Assembly: GCA_038046465.1 (NCBI GenBank)
Contig: JBBSWB010000041.1
Location: 1 to 58,865 of the forward strand
From: Nanobdellota archaeon
Lineage (GTDB): Archaea > Nanobdellota > Nanobdellia > Woesearchaeales > GW2011-AR9
Length of the DNA: 58,865 bases
Reading direction: 5' to 3'
Below the pieces are notes generated by a model. That model did not search any database and was not told the origin of the DNA. It saw nothing but the letters and a program-made list of their open reading frames with translations. Below, in pieces: positions 1 through 56,187 of the stretch (within the stretch, counting starts at the first letter, position 1; each line of letters starts with the position of its first letter). The position numbers and the translations under genes are program-made.

Positions 1-98
1 GATTTCTGTACTCGAGAATATAGATTAAATCACTTCAGAATACTGAAGTATTACTTAAATGCAAAAACTTTATAAAGACTTAATTGACAAAAGCAAGA

Positions 99-785
99 AT
101 GGCTGAAAAAATTAAATTACATGATTTTGTAGAAGTAGACTATACTGGAAAGCTTCCAGAAGGGCTGGTATTTGACACCACTATAGAAAAAGTGGCTAAA
201 GAAAATGATATGTATTCTGCACAGATGAAATTTTCTCCCGCTACAGTTTGTGTGGGGGAAAGACAAATTCTGCCTGGATTAGACCAAGAATTAGAAGGAA
301 AAGAAATTGGAATAGAATATACGATTACTTTACCTCCTGAAAAGGCCTTTGGTAAAAGAGATATTAAGAGAATGAAAATTATTCCGGCAGGAACTTTTAA
401 AGAACATAAAATAAACCCTCAGCCTGGACTGCAAGTAGATATTGACGGAGAGATGGGCATCATAACCCATATTTCCGGAGGAAGAATCATTGTTAATTTT
501 AATCATCCTTTAGCTGGAAAAGAAGTTATTTACACTTTCAAAATAAATCGAAAAATTGAAGACGATCAGGAAAAAGTAATCGCTTTCTTGTCTACTTTGC
601 TAGGTCTTCCAAAAGAAAAAACAGAAGTGAAAGTAGTTGAAAACAAAGCAACGGTAATTTTGCCAATAGAACTTCCTGCGCCAGTAACGGATCTGCTTAA
701 GAAAAGACTGGTAGAAGTAACTTCCTTAACCGAAGTAGTATTCGAGAAAAAAGAAGCTACTAAAGAAACAAAAGCTAAGAAATAA
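99..785 (+). CDS. FKBP-type peptidyl-prolyl cis-trans isomerase (archaeal long FKBP/SlyD-like)
   Basis: ORF 84..785 with FKBP-like motifs (VDYTGKL..G.VFDTT, ILPGLDQEL.GK, NFNHPLAGK). A TATA-like TTTATAAA at 69-76 favours the ATG at 99 over the TTG at 84. Confidence 0.85.
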   Translation: MAEKIKLHDFVEVDYTGKLPEGLVFDTTIEKVAKENDMYSAQMKFSPATVCVGERQILPGLDQELEGKEIGIEYTITLPPEKAFGKRDIKRMKIIPAGTFKEHKINPQPGLQVDIDGEMGIITHISGGRIIVNFNHPLAGKEVIYTFKINRKIEDDQEKVIAFLSTLLGLPKEKTEVKVVENKATVILPIELPAPVTDLLKKRLVEVTSLTEVVFEKKEATKETKAKK

Positions 786-880
786 AAAATAACCTTATGA
801 ATTAAAGTTATTTCTGTTTTTATTATTCCGTTGGTATTGTTTAGTTAATTTAATAAACTTCTTAAATTTACTTATTCTTA

Positions 881-2449
881 ATGTCAGAAAAAAGAGAACT
901 AAAGAGATTAAGCGAAGATTTAGTTCTAGCTTTAAATTGGGCTGCTGCGGAATATTATTATTTTAAGGAATTACAAAAGGAATTTGAAATTATAGGAAAA
1001 AAACGCGATGAAGCGCCTTATGCTAAAGAAGCTCGTCGAGTAGCAAAAATTGTTAAGTATATTTGCTCAGCAGAAAGGAGAACAGACCAATTTGAAGAAA
1101 AAGCAAGAAAAAAAAATGAAGATTTTGCTGAAGAATTAAGTAAACGTCTTGGAGAAAATATTGCTTTAATGGATTTAATTAAGGGATTTAGAGCAATCGC
1201 TAAAGAACTGAATGTAGAACATGCACATTTAGCAGCGTTCGCAAGCAGATATGACGGGTTTGTGAATGAATATATCGGTAAACTCGGCGGATATTCAGCA
1301 GCTCATTCTAAACTATATACATATATCAAGAGGTCTCCGGATTTAAAATCAGAAGAGCAGGAGAAAGTTAGTATCGCTGTTTCCAAATTTATAGAGCAAA
1401 CAAAAGAACAAGTTCAAGATGCTCAAAGATGGATCGCCGCTTTAGAAGCGAGCCTGAGGAAAGCTTACAATTATACGTCGGGATTCAAATTGACTGAAAA
1501 GAAAGAAGCCAGGTTAACCGAAAAAGAAGAAAACTTGAAAATCTTGCATGAACAACGCTGGCCCTTTCCAGATAGAGACGAAAGAACAAATTTTCTTGTC
1601 CAACAACCTACGGAAGATTTGCGCCAATTGATTAAAAAAATGGCTCGATATAGGTATGCGCACGGAATCCTTCAAACATCTTATTTTTTTACTGAAGGCA
1701 TGCTTCTTGCAATAGATCCATTAATGAAAAAGCAAATAACTTGGAAAGAAATTGTGGAAGATTTACCAATGGCGGATTTGACAGAAGAAGGCCGTTCTAA
1801 TTTACAGCATTACGCTAAATTGTTTATTTATGGATACCTTAGGGTTTATTTAAAATTAAACAAGGCCGGATATTTCAAGTATTTTCCAAATCACGAAGAA
1901 ACCTGCAAGCTTTATGAATTTATGCGCCAGCTCGTGCATGAAGTGGAAAGAAGCAACGTCGACTTTGTTTATGCAATTGACCGCAGCGGCAGGATTCTAG
2001 GTTTCTTACTTTACCAAGTCTTAAAAAAGCTCGGGAAACTGGGAAAAACAAAATTTTATTTTATGTACGCTACTAAGGAAATGGACGTTGCTCTTTATTC
2101 CGAAAAGCAGAAAAAAGAAATTCGTGGCAAGAAAGTTTTATTGATTGATGATTTTTCTTCAGTAGGTAACACTATGACTTCAACTCTTTCTTATCTTCGA
2201 GCATTCGGACCTGAAAAAGTTATTCCTTATGTATTTGCAAGCTTCGGCTACCGTCCTTTGCGTGGAAGAGAAGATTACCATATTGTTTACGACCAAGAGC
2301 CCAGTTGGTTCTGGAAAAAAGAATATTCCGGTCTAAATGAAAAACCGCACGGAGGAGTAGAAGTCAATAAAGGTGCTAAAGAAATTTCTCGAAAGGTTAG
2401 AAAAGTCTTAATTACCTTTGCCGAAGTCATTGCTGAATATTATTACTGA
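881..2449 (+). CDS. Hypothetical protein: N-terminal helical/coiled-coil region plus C-terminal phosphoribosyltransferase-like domain (paralog of 6891..8402)
   Basis: 522-aa ORF. The C-terminal KKVLLIDDFSSVGNTMTS resembles the PRPP-binding loop of type I PRTases. The N-terminus aligns with 6891..8402 (W.AAE..Y..ELQ, AERR, W..AL.A.L.KA). Confidence 0.6.
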   Translation: MSEKRELKRLSEDLVLALNWAAAEYYYFKELQKEFEIIGKKRDEAPYAKEARRVAKIVKYICSAERRTDQFEEKARKKNEDFAEELSKRLGENIALMDLIKGFRAIAKELNVEHAHLAAFASRYDGFVNEYIGKLGGYSAAHSKLYTYIKRSPDLKSEEQEKVSIAVSKFIEQTKEQVQDAQRWIAALEASLRKAYNYTSGFKLTEKKEARLTEKEENLKILHEQRWPFPDRDERTNFLVQQPTEDLRQLIKKMARYRYAHGILQTSYFFTEGMLLAIDPLMKKQITWKEIVEDLPMADLTEEGRSNLQHYAKLFIYGYLRVYLKLNKAGYFKYFPNHEETCKLYEFMRQLVHEVERSNVDFVYAIDRSGRILGFLLYQVLKKLGKLGKTKFYFMYATKEMDVALYSEKQKKEIRGKKVLLIDDFSSVGNTMTSTLSYLRAFGPEKVIPYVFASFGYRPLRGREDYHIVYDQEPSWFWKKEYSGLNEKPHGGVEVNKGAKEISRKVRKVLITFAEVIAEYYY

Positions 2450-2478
2450 TTTGATTAAGAAATTAAAAAAATTAAAAT

Positions 2479-2622
2479 TTATTTCATTCTTCTTTTTAAT
2501 TTGGCTAAAGCTTCATAATCTGCTTTGGTGCCGCTGCCGCCTTGACATTTGGTTTCTAAATTTTTAAGTTCGTCTTTCAAAACCGAATACCTTCTTTCCA
2601 AATCGCGTTTGCTTATAGTCAT
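2479..2622 (-). CDS. Small coiled-coil protein (47 aa), not in the ORF track
   Basis: My translation: MTISKRDLERRYSVLKDELKNLETKCQGGSGTKADYEALAKLKRRMK. A GGTGA Shine-Dalgarno-like motif lies 6-7 nt upstream of the ATG at 2622, and the stop TAA is at 2479-2481. Confidence 0.4.
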   Translation of the reverse strand: MTISKRDLERRYSVLKDELKNLETKCQGGSGTKADYEALAKLKRRMK

Positions 2623-2783
2623 GTTTTCACCTTTGCTTAGATTAATATTGGATTAAATTTGTTTAATATTAATAAACGAGATTAATAAACTAATACGGAT
2701 TAAGTTAATCTCTTAATCCCCTAAATGATTAAACCTATAAAAAGTTAACTGTTTTTGGAGAATATGTAAAAAGAGATTTATTT

Positions 2784-3059
2784 CTAATCTCCCAAAATTT
2801 TATAGGCAACTAGTGCCCCATAAGGAAGAATCACTTGATCTGGCGATGCAAAACTAAAACTAAAACCCGCAATCAAATCTACAGCAACGGCATAATCTGC
2901 TTTTGCTTTCAGTATTTTAAAATCATTTTTATGGTGGGTTAAATCAACTACAAAAATCTTCTTTTCTTCAAACTTTTTAAAAGCATCTTTAAGCGTGGGC
3001 GCATCTTTAAGTAGATCGACTAGCGAAGGATTCAATGTTTGTTTTTCTGTTGCGGTCAT
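2784..3059 (-). CDS. Hypothetical protein (91 aa)
   Basis: Intact ORF in an otherwise gene-free gap, with no recognisable motif. Confidence 0.4.
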   Translation of the reverse strand: MTATEKQTLNPSLVDLLKDAPTLKDAFKKFEEKKIFVVDLTHHKNDFKILKAKADYAVAVDLIAGFSFSFASPDQVILPYGALVAYKILGD

Positions 3060-38367: not shown

Positions 38368-38486
38368 GCCCCAGTAGCTTAGTGGCTATAGCACCTGACT
38401 TGTAGCCAACTATCTGCTATGTTTCCAACGAAATATAAGCATAGTAAGATATCAGGAGATCGGGAGTTCAACTCTCCCCTGGGGCT
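38368..38486 (+). tRNA. tRNA-Thr (anticodon TGT) with a canonical 46-nt intron at 37/38 (38405..38450)
   Basis: GCCCCAG TA GCTT AGTGGCTA TAGC A CCTGA CTTGTA [46 nt] A TCAGG AGATC GGGAG TTCAACT CTCCC CTGGGGC T. Central BHB helix CTTG/TAAG with 3-nt bulges. Confidence 0.9.
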
Positions 38487-48789: not shown

Positions 48790-49860
48790 TTAAGAACACT
48801 TAAACCCTTCTCCTTCTAATAATCGTTTCTGCCAATTCCGTAAGCAGCTGCAGTCGTTGTTGAAAACGATTTGATTCATCTGCTCTTTATTGATGATCAA
48901 ATGGCCTTTTATTTTTAGTTTACCAGCAAGTTTGGCCTGCAATTCATACAATTTTTCAAATTGCTCTTTCTCTTCTACGGTGCTGTATTTTCTTTTGATT
49001 TTAACTAACTGAACTGGTTCTTGTTTTCCTTTTTCCACGGCTTCCTGAAATAATTTTGCTTTAATTCTAACAATAGGATGGACGCTGCGCACGAAACTCC
49101 AATTTATTGCCGGATTAACGGCAAATTCTTTTAATTTTTGCGTACTGATAACAAAATGAACGGGGCGGTCTACTTCTTGGGCTAACTGTTTGCGCAGAAA
49201 AAATAATTGCTTAAAGATACCTAATTGCTGTTCGGATAAGTCCCTTACTCCGCGGACATCCATAAATTCCTGTTCAGTATAAGTAAATTCAATATTCTCA
49301 ATCATCGCAAATTCTTCTATTGCCCAGGACAGGCGATCTTTTTCTTGCAATTCTTTCTTTAAAATTTCCCGCAGGGGCAATAAGTATAAAATATCCGTTA
49401 CCGCATAAGCTAACATGGCCGGAGAAATGGGGCGCTTGGTCCAATCAGCCATCTGAAATTTCTTTTCTTTGTGGATACTTAGATATTCTTCCAATAATGC
49501 GCCCAAGCCGATATTTTCTTTTCCTAATAATAAAGCAGCAATCTGGGTGTCAAAAATGTTTTTAGGGCGGCAGGAAAATTGTTCATACAAAATTCTGAAA
49601 TCAAAACCGACATCATGGAAGACTTTTTGAATACTTTTATTTTCCAAAACTTCAATAAGAGGCTTAATTTCTTTTAGAGTCAGCACATCCACAACCCAAT
49701 TTTCTATGCCGTTAGAAATCTGGATTAAAGTAATATAGGCTCCGTAATGATGTAAGTTGTTTTCACACTCTAAATCGACTGCTAAATCAGCAGAAAGCCC
49801 CCACTGTTTAGCTGCTTCCTCTAACTCAGTTGGAGTATTAATGTACGTAAAATGAGACAT
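48790..49860 (-). CDS. rnd: RNase D-like 3'-5' exoribonuclease (DEDDy domain plus HRDC-like domain)
   Basis: DLECEN, HDVGFDFRIL and ADWTKRP......YAVTDILYL exonuclease motifs. Confidence 0.8.
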   Translation of the reverse strand: MSHFTYINTPTELEEAAKQWGLSADLAVDLECENNLHHYGAYITLIQISNGIENWVVDVLTLKEIKPLIEVLENKSIQKVFHDVGFDFRILYEQFSCRPKNIFDTQIAALLLGKENIGLGALLEEYLSIHKEKKFQMADWTKRPISPAMLAYAVTDILYLLPLREILKKELQEKDRLSWAIEEFAMIENIEFTYTEQEFMDVRGVRDLSEQQLGIFKQLFFLRKQLAQEVDRPVHFVISTQKLKEFAVNPAINWSFVRSVHPIVRIKAKLFQEAVEKGKQEPVQLVKIKRKYSTVEEKEQFEKLYELQAKLAGKLKIKGHLIINKEQMNQIVFNNDCSCLRNWQKRLLEGEGFKCS

Positions 49861-49889
49861 AAATTGAATATTTAAAAGTAATATATAAA

Positions 49890-50276
49890 TTGTTTTGTTT
49901 TTTTGGTTTGAATATTTTAAGAATTAAGAAAAATAAACCTGATTTTTTGTTAGTAGTTAATTTTTATTCATTACAATCGTTACTATATAGCCACGGTTCA
50001 TTTTCCTCCGAGTTAAAAAACCTGCAAATTTTAGAAAAAAATAATGAATATATACTAACGGTTGCTAATGTTCCTGATATTTCTGGGCTTAAAGTTAGTT
50101 ATCCAAAATGTGTTGGTAAATATTATGTTCAAAAAAGGATTGATTGCTTAAAAACACCCCAATCAGAAGAAATAAGTAAAGAATATTATCAAGAAAAAGT
50201 TGGAGAACTAAAAGAAAAACAAGAAAGTCCGATTTTTTTAAGAATTTTTTCTTTCTTTAAAAGATTTTTTCCTTAA
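49890..50276 (+). CDS. Doubtful hypothetical ORF (128 aa, TTG start only)
   Basis: No ATG in frame and no Shine-Dalgarno. Kept only because nothing else occupies the gap. Confidence 0.2.
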   Translation: MFCFFGLNILRIKKNKPDFLLVVNFYSLQSLLYSHGSFSSELKNLQILEKNNEYILTVANVPDISGLKVSYPKCVGKYYVQKRIDCLKTPQSEEISKEYYQEKVGELKEKQESPIFLRIFSFFKRFFP

Positions 50277-50385
50277 GAAATTTAAAATTATATTTAATGC
50301 GTATATGTCCGCCCTTTTTTGATATCGATTAAATACACAATTTTTTAAAGCAAGGTTTTAATATCTGTGAACAATATCAGTTTAA

Positions 50386-51891
50386 ATGAAGCTAACTGCG
50401 CCATTATTGTCCGTTCTGGCTTTAGGCTGTGCTGGACTACCGGGCAATATTTCTTTACCAGAAGTTTATACTAATTTAGTTTGTTCTGAAGAAACCCGAA
50501 TGCTGGAAGAAGCAGTAAATCAAGAAGCAAAAAAGAATGAAAACATTTACGAATGTAAAGTCGATACTACTAATTTTTTTATCCCAGAAGTATTGGGCTG
50601 CTCGGTTAATGCGGGATTATATTTTTCTGGTGAAGAACCTTTTGTGGATCAAGAGCAACGGGAACGATATGGGATGTTTTATACTTTTGAACCTTATCCG
50701 GAACGGATAGATCATTACCAACAAGCAGTAGAAAGAAAAAATGGTGCAGAAACGCCTAAATTAGATTTTAAGTTGAGCATGGGTAGTTATTATACGACTT
50801 CAGCAAATTTAAAACAAATTGAAACCTTACAGAAAAAAGAAAAACGCAGTAAATACGAAGAGCAGCTGTTAAAAAGCTTAGCAGAAAAAGTGGCCCGGGT
50901 TAAGGAGATCCAAACTATTCTTAGCTGGGAAGGATTTTATCAAAAAGAAATTAACGGAGTTTATCCGCAGAAATCTGTCCGAGATTACCAACGCTTTCAC
51001 CATTTGCCTGCCCACGGATGGATGGATTTAGAAACTAAACAACAGATGATTATGCCTTTAGAACAACAGGTTTTTCCGGAGCGGCAGAATATCTTACATA
51101 TTTTAGAAGAACGGGTCTTTCATGCCCAATGCCGCATTAATGAACGTGAAGTTTATCCCTATGTAATTGAAGATGCTGCCTTGGATAAGCTAGTAAGTTC
51201 GGCTGCAGAACAATTAGGATTGGATTCGATTAAAGGAACGGCTGATTTTTTTAAAAATGATCCGGGAGAAGTTACCGTGCAGCTGAAGATTCCTGGACGT
51301 TATGTTCAAGAAACCATGAGTTTAGAAATGCAGGTGATTAAATCTAAAAAAGATCGCTCCAAAACTTCTTTCACTTTATATGCTTGGGAAGATGGGGAAG
51401 AGATTGAACTGTTTAAAAGAAGAGCAGTAGTGGGCGGTCCGCACAAAGTCTTTGGGGTAAAAAAAGAATTTGATACTCCCGCCGGAGAAGCTTATTTAAA
51501 ACGGGTAGTGGTGATGCCTCACTGGAATCCGCCTGCTTGGTCCAAAGAAAAGTATGGTGAAGTAAGCACTGTACCGGGCCCTTTAAACGCCTATGGTATG
51601 TTTATGACTGAATTATATTACAGCGATAAAATTCCTAAAGACCCTTATGTTTGGTATATGGACGGAGATTTAGGATTTCGATTACATTTAACCGCTAGTC
51701 CGGGAAGTGTGGAAGGCGGTTATGGTAAATCCCACGGATGTGTAAGATTACATCCTACGGACGGGAGCAGGGTGTTTTATTTTATGTTACGATATACGCC
51801 GCATTTACCGATGAAAGAACTGTTTAAGAAAGGCGAGATTATTCCGTTCGTACCCGGAGAAATGATTAAGGTCAGGATTAAGGAGAAGTGA
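50386..51891 (+). CDS. L,D-transpeptidase (YkuD) domain lipoprotein with peptidoglycan-binding-like domain
   Basis: Lipobox LSVLALGC. PG_binding_1-like segment GFYQKEINGVYPQKSVRDYQRFHHLPAHGWMDLETKQQM. Catalytic motif GKSHGCVRL. Confidence 0.8.
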   Translation: MKLTAPLLSVLALGCAGLPGNISLPEVYTNLVCSEETRMLEEAVNQEAKKNENIYECKVDTTNFFIPEVLGCSVNAGLYFSGEEPFVDQEQRERYGMFYTFEPYPERIDHYQQAVERKNGAETPKLDFKLSMGSYYTTSANLKQIETLQKKEKRSKYEEQLLKSLAEKVARVKEIQTILSWEGFYQKEINGVYPQKSVRDYQRFHHLPAHGWMDLETKQQMIMPLEQQVFPERQNILHILEERVFHAQCRINEREVYPYVIEDAALDKLVSSAAEQLGLDSIKGTADFFKNDPGEVTVQLKIPGRYVQETMSLEMQVIKSKKDRSKTSFTLYAWEDGEEIELFKRRAVVGGPHKVFGVKKEFDTPAGEAYLKRVVVMPHWNPPAWSKEKYGEVSTVPGPLNAYGMFMTELYYSDKIPKDPYVWYMDGDLGFRLHLTASPGSVEGGYGKSHGCVRLHPTDGSRVFYFMLRYTPHLPMKELFKKGEIIPFVPGEMIKVRIKEK

Positions 51892-52004: not shown

Positions 52005-52586
52005 ATGAATAATAATCTAAAGATACTAAAACTGTTTGTGGACAACAAAGACAAAACCTTCACCATAAAGAAGGCAGCCGAAGCACTAAAAATAAATTAT
52101 AAAATTGTTTACGAAGAGATAACAGAATTGGAAAAAGAAAAATTAATTTCAATAACCAGGCAGGGAAATGCTAAAGTCTGTGTTTTTAATTACCAATACC
52201 ACAGTAAGATTGTTGAAATTGAAGAAATCCGAAAGCAGGAATTATTTAAAAATAAAGATTTGAAATTGATTTATAACCGAATCAAAGAAGTTAAAAACCC
52301 TTTTTATTGCTTAGTTCTTTTCGGCTCTTATGCCAACAAAACTAATCAAAAAGGGTCTGATATTGATCTATGCTTAATTACTGACAACTCTAAAATTAAC
52401 CGCCAAGTTCAGTCGATTTTAAGTATAACTCCTTTGCCAATTCACCTGCAAGAATTTAGTTCGAAGCAGTTTTTGCTCATGCTCAAAAGCAAAGAAGTTA
52501 ATGTTGGCAACGAAATAGTTAAAAATAATGTCCTTTTATACGACATGGAAGCATTTTACGAATTGATAAACAATGTTAAGCAATGA
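52005..52586 (+). CDS. wHTH-fused minimal nucleotidyltransferase (MNT-type antitoxin-like)
   Basis: LFGSYANKTNQKGSDIDLCLI NTase signature, with an N-terminal wHTH. Confidence 0.75.
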   Translation: MNNNLKILKLFVDNKDKTFTIKKAAEALKINYKIVYEEITELEKEKLISITRQGNAKVCVFNYQYHSKIVEIEEIRKQELFKNKDLKLIYNRIKEVKNPFYCLVLFGSYANKTNQKGSDIDLCLITDNSKINRQVQSILSITPLPIHLQEFSSKQFLLMLKSKEVNVGNEIVKNNVLLYDMEAFYELINNVKQ

Positions 52587-53094
52587 ACGGATAAAAGAAG
52601 CACAACAGCAGGTTTCAACCTATCTTGCAGAAGGTTTGCTCAAAAAAGAAAAGGTTAAGAGAATAGTCTTGGAAACTTATCTTAAAAACCATCGGGAATC
52701 TTTGTTAGTGGCCAGGAAACTATTTGATGAAAAAATATCTAATCTTTGGGTGGTGGTCATCAGTTATTATTCTATGTTCTACCTAGCCAATGCTTTGTTG
52801 TATAAAATAGGATATAAAGTCGGCTCAAAAGTTGCACACAAAGTTACTTCAGATGCGCTGATTGTTTTAGTAAGGAATAAGCTGAAAGACCAGCTCATTG
52901 AAGATTATGAATTGGCCAGCAATGAAGCCTTAACCCTTTCTGATAATCTGTTGCAAAATTTTGATTTGGAAAGAGCAAAGCGTTCTGTCTTCCAGTACGA
53001 ATCGACGGAGGAAATAAAAGCTGCTAAAGCAAAAACTTCTTTAGATCGGGCGGAAGAATTCAGTGTTAAAATAGAAAAACTGCTCCTAGACTGA
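52573..53094 (+). CDS. HEPN-domain protein (partner of 52005..52586)
   Basis: All-helical, 173 aa. It overlaps the upstream NTase gene by 14 nt. It resembles 53798..54271 (YYSMFY/YYSMYH, conserved His). Confidence 0.6.
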   Translation: MLSNERIKEAQQQVSTYLAEGLLKKEKVKRIVLETYLKNHRESLLVARKLFDEKISNLWVVVISYYSMFYLANALLYKIGYKVGSKVAHKVTSDALIVLVRNKLKDQLIEDYELASNEALTLSDNLLQNFDLERAKRSVFQYESTEEIKAAKAKTSLDRAEEFSVKIEKLLLD

Positions 53095-53797: not shown

Positions 53798-54271
53798 CTA
53801 TTGTAATCTCTTTACAGTTTTAGAACGATATTCCTTAATTTTGTCTTCAGTTAGGTTTTCTGTAAAATTATTAATCTCAATAATAAACTCCTCTGCAATA
53901 TGTATTGATTTCATTACTTCTTCTTTGGTAATAGCAAAGTCAATGTAATACTGTTTATCAACCCTTTCGCTTTTTGCTTTAGAAATCACCGCATTATCCA
54001 AATTAAAAATTTCTTTAAGCAGTATTATGGCGGCAGTGTGGTTTTCGCATTTGATTCCGCTGCGGAAGAGCAGAGATAAAAGCGCGTGATACATAGAGTA
54101 ATAAGCTAAAGCAACAGAATCCTTTAGATTGCCAATCTTTAGAAGAGCCTTGGCTGAAGAAAGTGATTCCTGTGCGCGCTGTAGATAAGCTATCCTCATT
54201 TCTTCGCTTGGTTCAACTACCTGCAGCTTCTTTTCCTTGGCTAATTTATGCAAAAAATCTGTTTTTCTCAT
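53798..54271 (-). CDS. HEPN-domain protein
   Basis: Helical, 157 aa, with a YYSMYHA...ENHTAAI pattern. It overlaps the upstream NTase by 26 nt. Confidence 0.65.
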   Translation of the reverse strand: MRKTDFLHKLAKEKKLQVVEPSEEMRIAYLQRAQESLSSAKALLKIGNLKDSVALAYYSMYHALLSLLFRSGIKCENHTAAIILLKEIFNLDNAVISKAKSERVDKQYYIDFAITKEEVMKSIHIAEEFIIEINNFTENLTEDKIKEYRSKTVKRLQ

Positions 54272-54803
54272 AATATACTTCTATCCCTTTGATGAGGAGA
54301 TGGTTCTTTTCAATTTCTTTAATCAAAAGATTGCTTGGATCGTAAAGGCCGATTTTTACGCTGAGTTTGGAATCAAGCAGCTCTACTTCTTCTTTGAGTT
54401 TTTTATCTTTGGTTTCTAAGTAAAGATCTATATCGCTGTCTTTATGCGCAGTTCCTTTGGCATAAGAGCCAAAGATTAGGGCCAAAGTAATTTTAGGATT
54501 TTTTCTGATGTTTTCAGTAATTAAACGCAACCGAGGATATTTTTGCAGCGCTTCTTTAAGTTTGTGCAACTCTGCAATATAAGCATATTGTTTTGCCTCT
54601 AGGGTTTTTTTAAGATGAAAAACTTTGTTTTTACCTTCCATTTGGAAATCTGCAGCATTTTCTTGATATAATTCCTTGGTTTTTCTGGCAATAGTGGTCT
54701 GGTTGGTGTTGAGTTCTTTGGCCAGCCCTCTCACGTGGTTCTCTTTTTTTAACAGCGCTTCCACAATTTGTATTTTGTAATCTTTTTGTGACATATGTAA
54801 CAT
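54246..54803 (-). CDS. wHTH-fused minimal nucleotidyltransferase (MNT-type)
   Basis: IFGSYAKGTAHKDSDIDLYLE NTase signature, with an N-terminal wHTH. Confidence 0.75.
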   Translation of the reverse strand: MLHMSQKDYKIQIVEALLKKENHVRGLAKELNTNQTTIARKTKELYQENAADFQMEGKNKVFHLKKTLEAKQYAYIAELHKLKEALQKYPRLRLITENIRKNPKITLALIFGSYAKGTAHKDSDIDLYLETKDKKLKEEVELLDSKLSVKIGLYDPSNLLIKEIEKNHLLIKGIEVYYEKNRFFA

Positions 54804-54835
54804 AATTATGACAAAGTATATAAAGGTTTGGATAT

Positions 54836-54886
54836 GGATTGGCTGGGAGATTAAGGGAGTTGTGAAGAGTTATTGAAGATAGTGAA
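54836..54886 (+). repeat. Direct repeat, copy 2 (decayed relic of the HAD gene 3' end)
   Basis: GGATTGGCTGGGAGATTAAGGGAGTTGTGAAGAGTTATTGAAGATAGTGAAGAG. Indels break the HAD reading frame. Confidence 0.8.
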
Positions 54887-54945
54887 GAGTTAAGTAGGCA
54901 TACCTTTATAAATATCTATACCTTTTAGACATCAGTTGATATAAA

Positions 54946-55257
54946 ATGGGAACTCAAACAGCACAATACCAAGATACTGAACTTCAAATTGTAAAAAGCC
55001 ATAAAACTAAGCGTTATCCTAATTTGAATACTGTTCTGATGGTCGAAAATTTTCTTAAAGCAAAGAGAGATTTGCCGCTAAAACTTGCAGAAATTAAAAA
55101 ACAATTGCCTAAAAAAATAATGCATGAGACTTTAAAAATAATTTTAGAATACCTTTGGAAAAGCGGCAAAATAATTTATGGCCCGAAAGGAGTGCAATGG
55201 ATTTATGTTGAACCGGAACATTTAAGAAAGATGCTCGAAAACACCTTAGAAATATAA
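54946..55257 (+). CDS. Putative antitoxin/wHTH protein upstream of the RelE-like toxin
   Basis: 103 aa. Its stop lies 1 nt before the toxin start. Confidence 0.45.
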   Translation: MGTQTAQYQDTELQIVKSHKTKRYPNLNTVLMVENFLKAKRDLPLKLAEIKKQLPKKIMHETLKIILEYLWKSGKIIYGPKGVQWIYVEPEHLRKMLENTLEI

Positions 55258-55258
55258 A

Positions 55259-55600
55259 ATGTATTTGGGCAAAGATGTTCGGATTCTGTTAAAAGGTTCT
55301 GCTAAAGATAGTTTTTTAGAATTAAAGAAGCGCCAGGATAAAGAAGCACAGATCTTGATAAAATCTGTGGAAAGAATAATTCTTATTTTAAAAGATAACC
55401 CTCTTTATGGCGATCCTATTAATAAAACTTTAATTCCTGAAGTATTCCGGAAAGAAGGAATTAAAAACCTTTATCGAGTGGAATTATCTAATTATTGGAG
55501 AATGATTTATACCATTGAAGGGAGTAATGTAGAAATATTTTTATTTGTCTTAAGTCTGGTTGATCATAAAAAATATAATAAAATGTTTGGGTATAAATAA
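55259..55600 (+). CDS. RelE/ParE-superfamily toxin-like protein
   Basis: C-terminal LYRVELSNYWRMIYTIEGSNVEIFLFVLSLVDHKKY matches the RelE-fold pattern (..R...YR.IY.I......I.....H..Y). Confidence 0.6.
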   Translation: MYLGKDVRILLKGSAKDSFLELKKRQDKEAQILIKSVERIILILKDNPLYGDPINKTLIPEVFRKEGIKNLYRVELSNYWRMIYTIEGSNVEIFLFVLSLVDHKKYNKMFGYK

Positions 55601-55641
55601 ATTGTAATTAATTATATAAACTTCAACTTCTTTTCTAATAT

Positions 55642-56187
55642 ATGCTTCAATCTTTGGAAGAAAAACAGGAATTATTGCAAAAGTCAGAAGTTAGCCTGTG
55701 GATTGACCACTATGATGATATTTTTTCTGACTTTGATCCCCGCCCTTATTCCCAGCGCGGCCTTTCCGATGACTTTTTGATTGAAGCTAAAAAATTTATT
55801 AAAGAAAAGGCTTCGGGAAGCTTTGAATTAATTTTTTTAGTACCTGAACTGATGAGAAAACCTGAATCTGAAGGTATTATCAAGAAACGCCTGCGTGAGC
55901 ATTTTAAAAAACACCACCTGTTATTAAAACATGACATGGTTAAAATAAAAAAGAAAGGGATTGCTTTAGCTGCGGTGGGTATGCTGCTGATGTTTGCTGC
56001 TTATTTGGTAACTACGGTTGAACAGAATATGCTGATGAATTTAATTTTTATAATTCTTGAACCGAGCGGATGGTTTCTGGCTTTTATAGGGATGGAGCAT
56101 ATCTTCTATGAAACTAAAGGGAAAACACCTGATTTAGAATTCTACACCAAGATGAGTAGATGCGAGATTAAGTTCAGGAGTTATTGA
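55642..56187 (+). CDS. Membrane protein (two C-terminal TM helices)
   Basis: 181 aa with hydrophobic segments GIALAAVGMLLMFAAYLV and LIFIILEPSGWFLAFIGM. Confidence 0.55.
   Translation: MLQSLEEKQELLQKSEVSLWIDHYDDIFSDFDPRPYSQRGLSDDFLIEAKKFIKEKASGSFELIFLVPELMRKPESEGIIKKRLREHFKKHHLLLKHDMVKIKKKGIALAAVGMLLMFAAYLVTTVEQNMLMNLIFIILEPSGWFLAFIGMEHIFYETKGKTPDLEFYTKMSRCEIKFRSY
56121..56187 (+). repeat. Direct repeat, copy 1 (3' end of membrane protein gene)
   Basis: GAAAACACC.GATTTAGA...GATGAGTAGATGCGAGATTAAGTTCAGGAGTTATTGA recurs at 58061-58120 with a 7-nt indel. Confidence 0.85.

Follow-up and report, generated by a model that had tools for sequence, protein, structure and literature searches.

L,D-transpeptidases (LDTs) of the YcbB/LdtD class, represented by structures from Escherichia coli (6ntw), Citrobacter rodentium (7kgm) and Vibrio cholerae (LdtA, 7aj9), are built of three parts, a helical scaffold, a PG_binding_1 repeat and a capped YkuD catalytic domain, and YkuD enzymes carry the active-site signature HxT...SHGCxR. 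Csd6 of Helicobacter pylori, Pgp2 of Campylobacter jejuni and Bd1075 have an NTF2-like domain instead, without PG_binding_1 or scaffold, and their substrate is the cell's own wall. Here we describe a gene of the YcbB-like build in an archaeon, found on contig JBBSWB010000041.1 of assembly GCA_038046465.1 (Nanobdellota archaeon). The window that we analyzed is this entire contig (C41; 58,865 nucleotides) of a 1.18-Mb, 87-contig assembly that is 93.6% complete and 0.41% contaminated. A first-pass annotation, made from the sequence alone, had read the gene as a bacterial-type LDT lipoprotein acquired horizontally from bacteria.

The LDT fold and chemistry are also used on a foreign sacculus. Tlde1a, an effector of the Salmonella type VI secretion system, owes its toxicity to L,D-carboxypeptidase activity and the exchange of D-amino acids (bioRxiv 10.1101/2022.08.05.502956), and the Bdellovibrio LDTs Bd0886 and Bd1176 stabilize invaded prey (PMC10482364). 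These proteins are bacterial, delivered by the type VI system or secreted into the prey periplasm. They showed no close relation in sequence or structure to the archaeal LDT, and neither kind is among its listed structural matches, their likeness to it being an analogy of use only. On the archaeal side, GH23 transglycosylases of Woesearchaeota and Pacearchaeota have been interpreted as serving attachment to or attack on bacteria (PMC8204110, PMC9723730, PMC11537232). L,D-transpeptidases are mentioned neither in these three papers nor in a 2025 survey of archaeal peptidoglycan hydrolases (PMC12352652).

A YcbB-like protein native to an archaeal genome

The open reading frame (ORF), with its LALGC lipobox, PG_binding_1 repeat and YkuD motif SHGCVRL, proved to be exactly as first annotated, both Pfam domains scoring above their cut-offs (Table 1). 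Its signal is short, basic and hydrophobic and terminates in L-A-L-G-C, and the catalytic motif occupies residues 449-455 of the 501-residue protein. In a profile scan of the whole genome, the YkuD domain scored 52.4 bits and the PG_binding_1 repeat 31.7 bits, the latter being the sole PG_binding_1 in the genome. Residues H434, S449, H450, C452 and R454 were identical in 25 of 25 aligned family members, F65, P67, Y79, R92, G96 and F101 of the N-terminal module were likewise invariant, and a cysteine stood at the lipobox position in 18 of the 25.

An AlphaFold2 model built from the family alignment (pLDDT 82.4, pTM 0.81; residues 1-50 disordered) predicts a YkuD beta-sandwich fold for the catalytic domain. 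The top full-length structural matches were of the YcbB/LdtD class, namely V. cholerae LdtA (Z 14.0) and E. coli YcbB (Z 13.1), and the resemblance to this class (Z 13.1-14.0) covered 212-255 aligned residues over model positions 102-501, or about 450 columns in Foldseek. The archaeal LDT shares the three-part build and an identical His/Cys/Arg catalytic signature with these enzymes, but differs in having only 15-21% identity, its own N-terminal module (residues 51-101), a lipobox anchor and a murein-less host. Residues from about 102 onward superposed on the YcbB/LdtA scaffold; residues 51-101 were barely covered by the fold searches. The catalytic domain also superposed on LdtMt1, LdtMt2 and Ldtfm (Z 12.4-13.3; root-mean-square deviation [rmsd] 2.5-3.0 Å over 122-129 residues) and on Csd6, Pgp2 and Bd1075 (Z 10.8-12.2; rmsd 3.3-3.5 Å), and the PG_binding_1 repeat on the N-terminal domain of SleB (6tci; Z 9.4, rmsd 2.0 Å, 70 residues). 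The family profile matched SleB 6tci at E 2.6e-5, and among the sequences of solved structures it found the PG_binding_1 repeat only and no LDT catalytic domain at E <= 0.01; the Pfam Scaffold family (PF20142) likewise had no match in the LDT at E <= 0.01. As neither PF20142 nor a YcbB chain was recovered by profile, we describe the protein as YcbB-like in build and not as a demonstrable member of the YcbB class.

The LDT gene is native to its host, a DPANN archaeon from groundwater (Nanoarchaeota, Woesearchaeota-like). C41 encodes aEF-1a, aEF-2, an archaeal/eukaryotic uS10, L7Ae, S28e, Spt5, aCPSF1 and a proteasome beta subunit, most of which exceed NCBIfam equivalog cut-offs, and it ranks second closest of 66 contigs to the tetranucleotide mean of the genome. 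The gene is somewhat richer in guanine and cytosine (GC) than its surroundings, as had been noted (39.6% versus 35.2 +/- 2.6% in 1.5-kb windows of the genome, the 96th percentile), yet its tetranucleotide distance lies only at the 80th percentile and its codon-usage distance from the genome average at the 27th, with a third-position GC (0.331) equal to that of aEF-2. An independent metagenome-assembled genome (MAG) of the same genus (G019), whose aEF-2 is 98% identical, reproduces the junction between the LDT gene and the neighboring RNase D-like gene at 80-83% DNA identity. Downstream, the G019 backbone resumes at the HAD gene of the window and at 55606-55720, and window positions 52005-53094 and 53798-55600, which hold NTase/HEPN and neighboring toxin-antitoxin (TA) cassettes, are missing from this otherwise collinear region. 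The LDT therefore belongs to the stable backbone, into which the TA island is variably inserted. Composition, including the tetranucleotide check that the first-pass annotation had advised, codon usage and congener junctions gave no sign of a chimeric contig or of recent import.

Between the congeners, the ratio of nonsynonymous to synonymous substitution (dN/dS) was 0.13 for the N-terminal part (381 codons) and about 0.02 for the catalytic part (137 codons), where dS is saturated, compared with 0.10 for the RNase D-like neighbor; the LDT is thus under strong purifying selection. Upstream of the gene, the A/T-rich block TTTTAATAT was kept in G019 while the remaining intergenic spacer diverged, and no Shine-Dalgarno sequence was found on reading from this element to the ATG. 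The layout is like that of an archaeal TATA box serving an mRNA with a short leader or none, making TTTTAATAT a putative promoter element. The lipobox pattern fits 42 of the 1,084 ORFs of at least 100 residues in this genome, so that of the LDT is not a bacterial relic; lipoproteins and a candidate lipidation enzyme, AliA, are reported to be prevalent in DPANN (PMC12462473). Five of the 42 are clustered on another contig of the genome (C15:24562-36718) and have canonical MKK...GC lipobox signals.

As had been supposed of this host, no genes for making murein or pseudomurein were found in the 93.6%-complete genome. The Mur-ligase domain (Mur_ligase_M) was absent in a search that also covers the pMur ligases of pseudomurein and whose controls were positive, and SEDS proteins (FtsW/RodA), penicillin-binding protein (PBP) transpeptidases and D-Ala-D-Ala ligase (Ddl) were not found, although control genomes were matched. 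The sole Ala_racemase_N match was a 204-residue ORF, whose length is that of YggS-type pyridoxal-phosphate-binding proteins.

Distribution and ancestry of the family

A phmmer search of 1.84 billion cluster representatives returned 88 matches only, 8 of them below 1e-30, and an indexed set of 5.8 billion proteins held 21 full-length clusters (36-90% identity), with the same 21 recovered by the profile. We also searched GTDB, with one genome for each of 185,579 species, using the family alignment as the query, which succeeded where a single LDT protein found no loci in genome contigs. This gave 16 loci, all titled Nanoarchaeota, Nanoarchaeia, Woesearchaeota or 'uncultured Methanosarcinales'. 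Eight public MAG records with the last kind of title carry the family (L017, L018, L021, L022, L024, L025, L028 and L031), three of which are sequence-identical to GTDB loci of the family or genus of the window (L028 = G224, L025 = G068, L031 = G019), and the NCBI organism label thus looks like a pipeline placeholder. Another locus, titled Nanoarchaeota (L029), is that of G236, which belongs to the GTDB family of the window. Among 401 high-quality genomes sampled from the phylum, the full-length protein occurred in 4 of the 41 other genomes of that family and in a single genome outside its order. This family of about 500 residues is thus confined, among members whose origin is known, to DPANN (Nanoarchaeota/Woesearchaeota) genomes. 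The next-nearest relatives are YkuD proteins of about 290 residues, likewise encoded in DPANN genomes: three match ORFs of G284, G012 and G254 at 100% identity, and the remaining ones resemble these ORFs at 35-48% identity. No match to the catalytic domain was found by tblastn in 72,556 plasmids, and viral contigs gave only active-site matches of 55-67 residues and no family member.

The phylogeny of the YkuD domain, which had been proposed as a check, agrees with this distribution. In the catalytic-domain tree, the family forms a clade with a support of 99 whose rows, where their origin is known, are all DPANN; rows P0041, P0056 and P0089 have no assigned origin, and an Atlas look-up of P0041 scored below 0.9 and serves as a lead only. 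This is largely the deep archaeal clade that the first-pass annotation had named as evidence against its own reading.

Bacterial relatives exist at a greater distance. Long outlying matches, when used as queries on metagenome contigs, identified 57 loci, nearly all of 59-75% GC. One such contig (L126; 70% GC) carries EttA and EgtB, which mark it as bacterial, and its 726-residue protein aligned to the archaeal profile with 99.2% probability (hhalign; E 1e-19) in an alignment of 287 columns that runs from PG_binding_1 to the active site. The bacterial PG_binding_1-YkuD proteins of 570-760 residues are homologous to the archaeal LDT from PG_binding_1 through the linker to the catalytic site, and motifs common to the 726-residue protein and the archaeal family are LEERVFHA-like, PGxxxAxGM and SHGCxR. 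The bacterial proteins differ in being longer, with extra inserts and about 28% identity, and in lying on contigs of 68-75% GC with bacterial genes; they are uncharacterized. When 23 bacterial rows were added to the tree, a long branch with a support of 100 parted 21 of them, together with P0097 and P0103, from the group that holds all 22 rows from DPANN genomes. The exception to this split was L094, from a contig of 60% GC, which grouped with the short forms on a long branch. L094 is metagenome contig Ga0315336_1018775, with two tandem YkuD ORFs of 449 and 397 residues, and its nesting in the DPANN short-form clade could reflect back-transfer to a bacterium or a long-branch artifact. Look-alike clusters in the Atlas (feature score 0.94, TM 0.60) had Myxococcota as the commonest taxon, which is again a lead only.

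Conserved neighbors point to vertical descent in a subclade of proteins of about 530 residues. Two genes for PKD/Big_9/cadherin-like surface proteins follow the LDT in 9 of the 9 loci that extend far enough, across nine species, and this surface pair is 52-80% identical between loci (L016, L021-L028). The other flank, where covered, encodes ArsR, a methyltransferase, a heavy-metal P-type ATPase and a DsbD_2/HMA/cupredoxin protein. In the genome of the window, the surface pair lies at C84:14631-18007, the smaller protein having a lipobox, and the ATPase lies on C15; neither is linked to the LDT.

These data are most simply explained by a single old transfer in which an ancestor inside the archaeal lineage received an entire PG_binding_1-YkuD gene from bacteria, after which the gene diversified and was lost many times. 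The direction of the transfer is suggested by murein and both domains being bacterial, and the age by the long supported branch, native codons, the TATA-like element, low dN/dS and conserved synteny. The original proposal of acquisition from bacteria thus holds as regards bacterial-type domains and an old bacterial ancestry, whereas the data do not support an import that was straightforward or recent and linked with the RNase D-like gene or the TA island. An apparent clash between aEF-2 and LDT identities was not used as evidence of transfer within DPANN, as branch support was only 84-89 and different parts of the proteins were compared.

Murein-acting enzymes in the phylum and the proposed role of the LDT

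YkuD domains occurred in 69 of the 401 phylum genomes and in 54 of 281 genera, with protein lengths of 153 to 1,860 residues. No more than three genomes (G266, G317 and the congener G019) had true Mur ligases, and a representative of the single-copy Mur-ligase-domain matches of about 400 residues was FolC, the remainder being assumed to be so by size. Only eight YkuD carriers had any Mur-ligase-domain match, where 15 were expected. This scarcity of Mur ligases, with an overlap below chance, argues that the YkuD enzymes of the phylum do not serve an endogenous murein pathway. SLT (GH23) domains were found in 209 of the 401 genomes, slightly more often in carriers of any YkuD (44/69) than in the others (165/332). 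The tallies include unpublished genomes (G244 and G359 for Mur ligases, G244 for SLT), on which no conclusion depends. In G129, a single protein of 1,855 residues (contig C8; L068:4831-10398, minus strand) joins NlpC/P60, GDSL esterase, SLT and YkuD modules, a fusion that makes sense only if their shared substrate is bacterial peptidoglycan. The GH23 proteins of Woesearchaeota and Pacearchaeota are a parallel within DPANN, being likewise extracellular bacterial-wall enzymes of murein-less organisms and in G129 fused to YkuD, but they have another fold and act on the glycan rather than a peptide bond, and the genome of the window is without them.

Several observations accompany these counts. 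On contig C75 of G019 (L065; 3,003 bp), a fused MurB-MurD gene (1-2064, plus strand) is followed by a glutamate racemase gene (2064-2828, plus strand), with scores above cut-off for murD (352.9 bits > 212), murB (217 > 144.5) and the racemase (192 > 147); this is either bacterial contamination of the MAG or a real transfer, and the genome of the window is without a Mur-ligase domain. Tandem YkuD arrays were seen in G325, with three proteins of 584-1,003 residues on C4 (L069:2122-9066, minus strand), and in G284, with three genes for proteins of about 280-295 residues on C20 (L070), a contig that also encodes TFIIE-alpha and a prenyltransferase of undecaprenyl-diphosphate-synthase type. The genome of the window has a second YkuD gene on contig C68 (L002:1183-1977, plus strand), unrelated to the LDT, whose 264-residue product has an N-terminal signal, a cysteine and an active-site region ...HGGG...TLGCI, and weakly resembles LdtF/DpaA/YafK (38.9 bits versus a cut-off of 365); a 348-residue ORF (29..1075, minus strand) adjoins it.

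We favor, at a probability of about 0.55, a reading of the LDT as a YcbB-like enzyme that is tethered at the cell surface and has bacterial murein as its substrate, within the known DPANN toolkit against bacterial walls. The fusion of PG_binding_1 with YkuD points to murein as the target and, since the archaeon cannot make murein, the substrate would most likely be the peptidoglycan of bacteria in contact with it, be they hosts, prey or neighbors. Among the targets first proposed (a bacterial partner, environmental muropeptides or an unknown envelope polymer), the wall of a bacterial partner is thus still the best guess. Export, lipidation, substrate and chemistry are predicted as follows. The lipid anchor would keep the enzyme on the archaeal surface and PG_binding_1 would dock onto the bacterial sacculus, where Cys452, with His434, would attack the bond that links the L-center of residue 3 to D-Ala4 in a tetrapeptide stem, forming a thioester. 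Resolution of the thioester by an amine would give a new 3-3 cross-link, the attachment of a protein or the exchange of a D-amino acid; alternatively, resolution by water would amount to L,D-carboxypeptidase action. Either outcome would remodel the wall of the partner at the contact site, and we do not choose between cross-linking, trimming, exchange and anchoring.

Some observations weigh against action on a bacterial wall. SLT, Amidase_2 and Peptidase_S66 were not found in the genome of the window, although control genomes were matched, and within its family the genomes with the LDT of about 500 residues (G000, G019, G068, G224 and G236) had no SLT at all (0/5), compared with 25 of the 37 others. 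The LDT is therefore not part of an obvious lytic set here. The contrast (Fisher's test, 0.007) involves five carriers from only three genera, which as kin are not independent; it could mean that the LDT replaces the transglycosylase route or, equally, that it does something else. In the subclade of about 530 residues, the LDT always stands beside PKD/Big_9 genes, which also fits a role on the archaeon's own surface. We know of no host for this archaeal lineage, the sacculus of Gram-negative bacteria lies beneath an outer membrane and thus beyond the reach of a tethered enzyme, and PG_binding_1 is also present in proteins that bind no murein, such as eukaryotic metalloproteases.

Such a role on its own surface, in which the LDT would use the same thioester chemistry to cross-link or anchor S-layer or adhesin proteins or a peptide-bearing wall polymer that has gone unrecognized, is in our view an unlikely alternative, but the strongest of those considered. 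In its favor, the family is old, conserved and under purifying selection in murein-less organisms, the subclade of about 530 residues keeps the adjoining surface-protein genes and family-bearing genomes mostly have no SLT; the genome of the window also retains the surface pair, one member with a lipobox. There, however, the pair is unlinked to the LDT and, with no Mur-type ligase or Ddl found and only the YggS-sized alanine-racemase-domain match, no source of an L,D peptide bond is visible, while PG_binding_1 and the YkuD/SLT/NlpC/P60/GDSL fusion of a relative indicate true murein. Rather less probable is a salvage role, with L,D-carboxypeptidase action as the main activity of the LDT: stems of free muropeptides or of wall debris would be trimmed to supply amino acids to an auxotrophic cell. 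L,D-carboxypeptidases do occur within the YkuD fold, and the model resembles Csd6, Pgp2 and Bd1075; peptidoglycan of dead bacteria has also been proposed as an amino-acid source for Pacearchaeota, which have a muramoyl-tetrapeptide carboxypeptidase (PMC11537232). Yet the best full-length structural matches are cross-linking enzymes of YcbB type, a membrane tether and polymer-binding domain would suit a polymer better than soluble fragments, and the partner enzymes Amidase_2, Peptidase_S66 and Ddl were not found in the genome.

A more specific outcome, which we hold to be improbable, is that the LDT would weld an episymbiont to its bacterial host, by acyl transfer from tetrapeptide stems of the host sacculus to a lysine on an archaeal surface protein, or through a persistent thioester. 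LdtA-C of E. coli, which weld Braun's lipoprotein to murein, provide a model for such cross-domain stapling. Least probable, and on the present data refuted, is that the gene is a recent import, a binning contaminant or the product of a chimeric join, and hence not truly the archaeon's. Its GC content (4 points over the genome mean), its bacteria-typical domains and the adjoining TA island would be expected of such a gene, but archaeal core genes share its 58.9-kb contig, which is close to the tetranucleotide mean, its codon usage is ordinary, the RNase D-LDT junction and downstream backbone recur in an independent congener, and its close relatives are all DPANN, with no bacterial plasmid match and no family member on viral contigs. 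Recent import is also at odds with the branch that separates the DPANN clade from bacteria, purifying selection and conserved synteny.

Neighboring features and significance

The coordinates of the gene, its protein parts and its neighbors are collected in Table 1. Both neighbors had been noticed at first pass. The RNase D-like gene indeed adjoins the LDT (TIGR01388 174.5 bits, under the cut-off of 299), and, although such genes had been believed to be uncommon in archaea, they are frequent in this lineage, occurring in about 26 of 151 sampled genomes and in 9 of 16 of the same family. A domain scan confirmed the NTase/HEPN (TA) island on the other side. Its 52005/52573 pair matches the PADLOC candidate families PDC-M05A and PDC-M05B, and the PADLOC scan gave no match for the LDT. 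Between the RNase D-like gene and the LDT, a 128-residue ORF (49890-50276, plus strand) is probably no gene, as it shows indels and heavy divergence in the congener. By the start of the RNase D-like gene, a 44-nt block (49861-49904) is nearly identical in both congeners and may be the promoter of that gene. Elsewhere in the window (38368-38486, plus strand), an Rfam tRNA match spans 119 nt against a model of 71 positions, which implies an intron of about 48 nt; this tRNA was missed by ARAGORN in bacterial mode.

Table 1. Positions (in the 58,865-nt window) of the LDT gene, parts of its product and adjoining features
Feature	Position	Strand	Basis
L,D-transpeptidase-family lipoprotein gene (DPANN-specific YcbB-like family)	50386..51891	+	ORF, 501 aa; Pfam YkuD + PG_binding_1
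Predicted signal peptide with lipobox L-A-L-G-C (residues 11-15, Cys15)	50386..50430	+	PROSITE-type pattern fit
Conserved N-terminal module and helical scaffold, residues ~51-169	50536..50892	+	No Pfam family
PG_binding_1 repeat, residues 170-221	50893..51048	+	Pfam 27.6 bits vs cut-off 23, E 3e-6
Linker domain, residues ~232-325, motif LEERVFHA	51079..51360	+	Family conservation
YkuD catalytic domain, residues 326-471	51361..51798	+	Pfam 50.6 bits vs cut-off 23.4, E 4e-13
Conserved inserted loop in YkuD domain, PGPxNAxG motif	residues ~377-425		Invariant motif in 25 aligned members
Catalytic residues H434 ... S449-H450-G451-C452-V453-R454-L455	51685..51750	+	Invariance, 25-member family alignment
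A/T-rich TATA-like element TTTTAATAT	50356..50364	+	Center ~26 nt 5' of ATG; putative archaeal promoter
RNase D-like gene, left neighbor	48790-49860	-	DNA_pol_A_exo1 + HRDC
NTase/HEPN pairs, right neighbors of LDT gene			Domain scan

The protein itself is of a known kind, which automatic annotation would name as an LDT-family protein, and a DPANN toolkit against bacterial walls has already been proposed; the new elements are the phyletic distribution and ancient origin of the family, the fusions and a testable link to bacterial partners. The case for bacterial hosts or prey of the very abundant Woesearchaeota-like DPANN has so far been made mainly on lytic transglycosylases. YkuD enzymes are a second, independent class of murein enzyme, and roughly one genome in six of the phylum carries them. 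The LDT protein is a clonable probe that could reveal the wall chemistry of the partner, whether of diaminopimelic acid (DAP) or Lys type. If the LDT should instead act on the archaeon's own surface, this would point to an unrecognized cross-linked envelope in DPANN. Covalent stapling, if true, would be the first covalent cell-cell junction between two prokaryotic domains, and would provide direct evidence for bacterial hosts of some Woesearchaeota-like DPANN.

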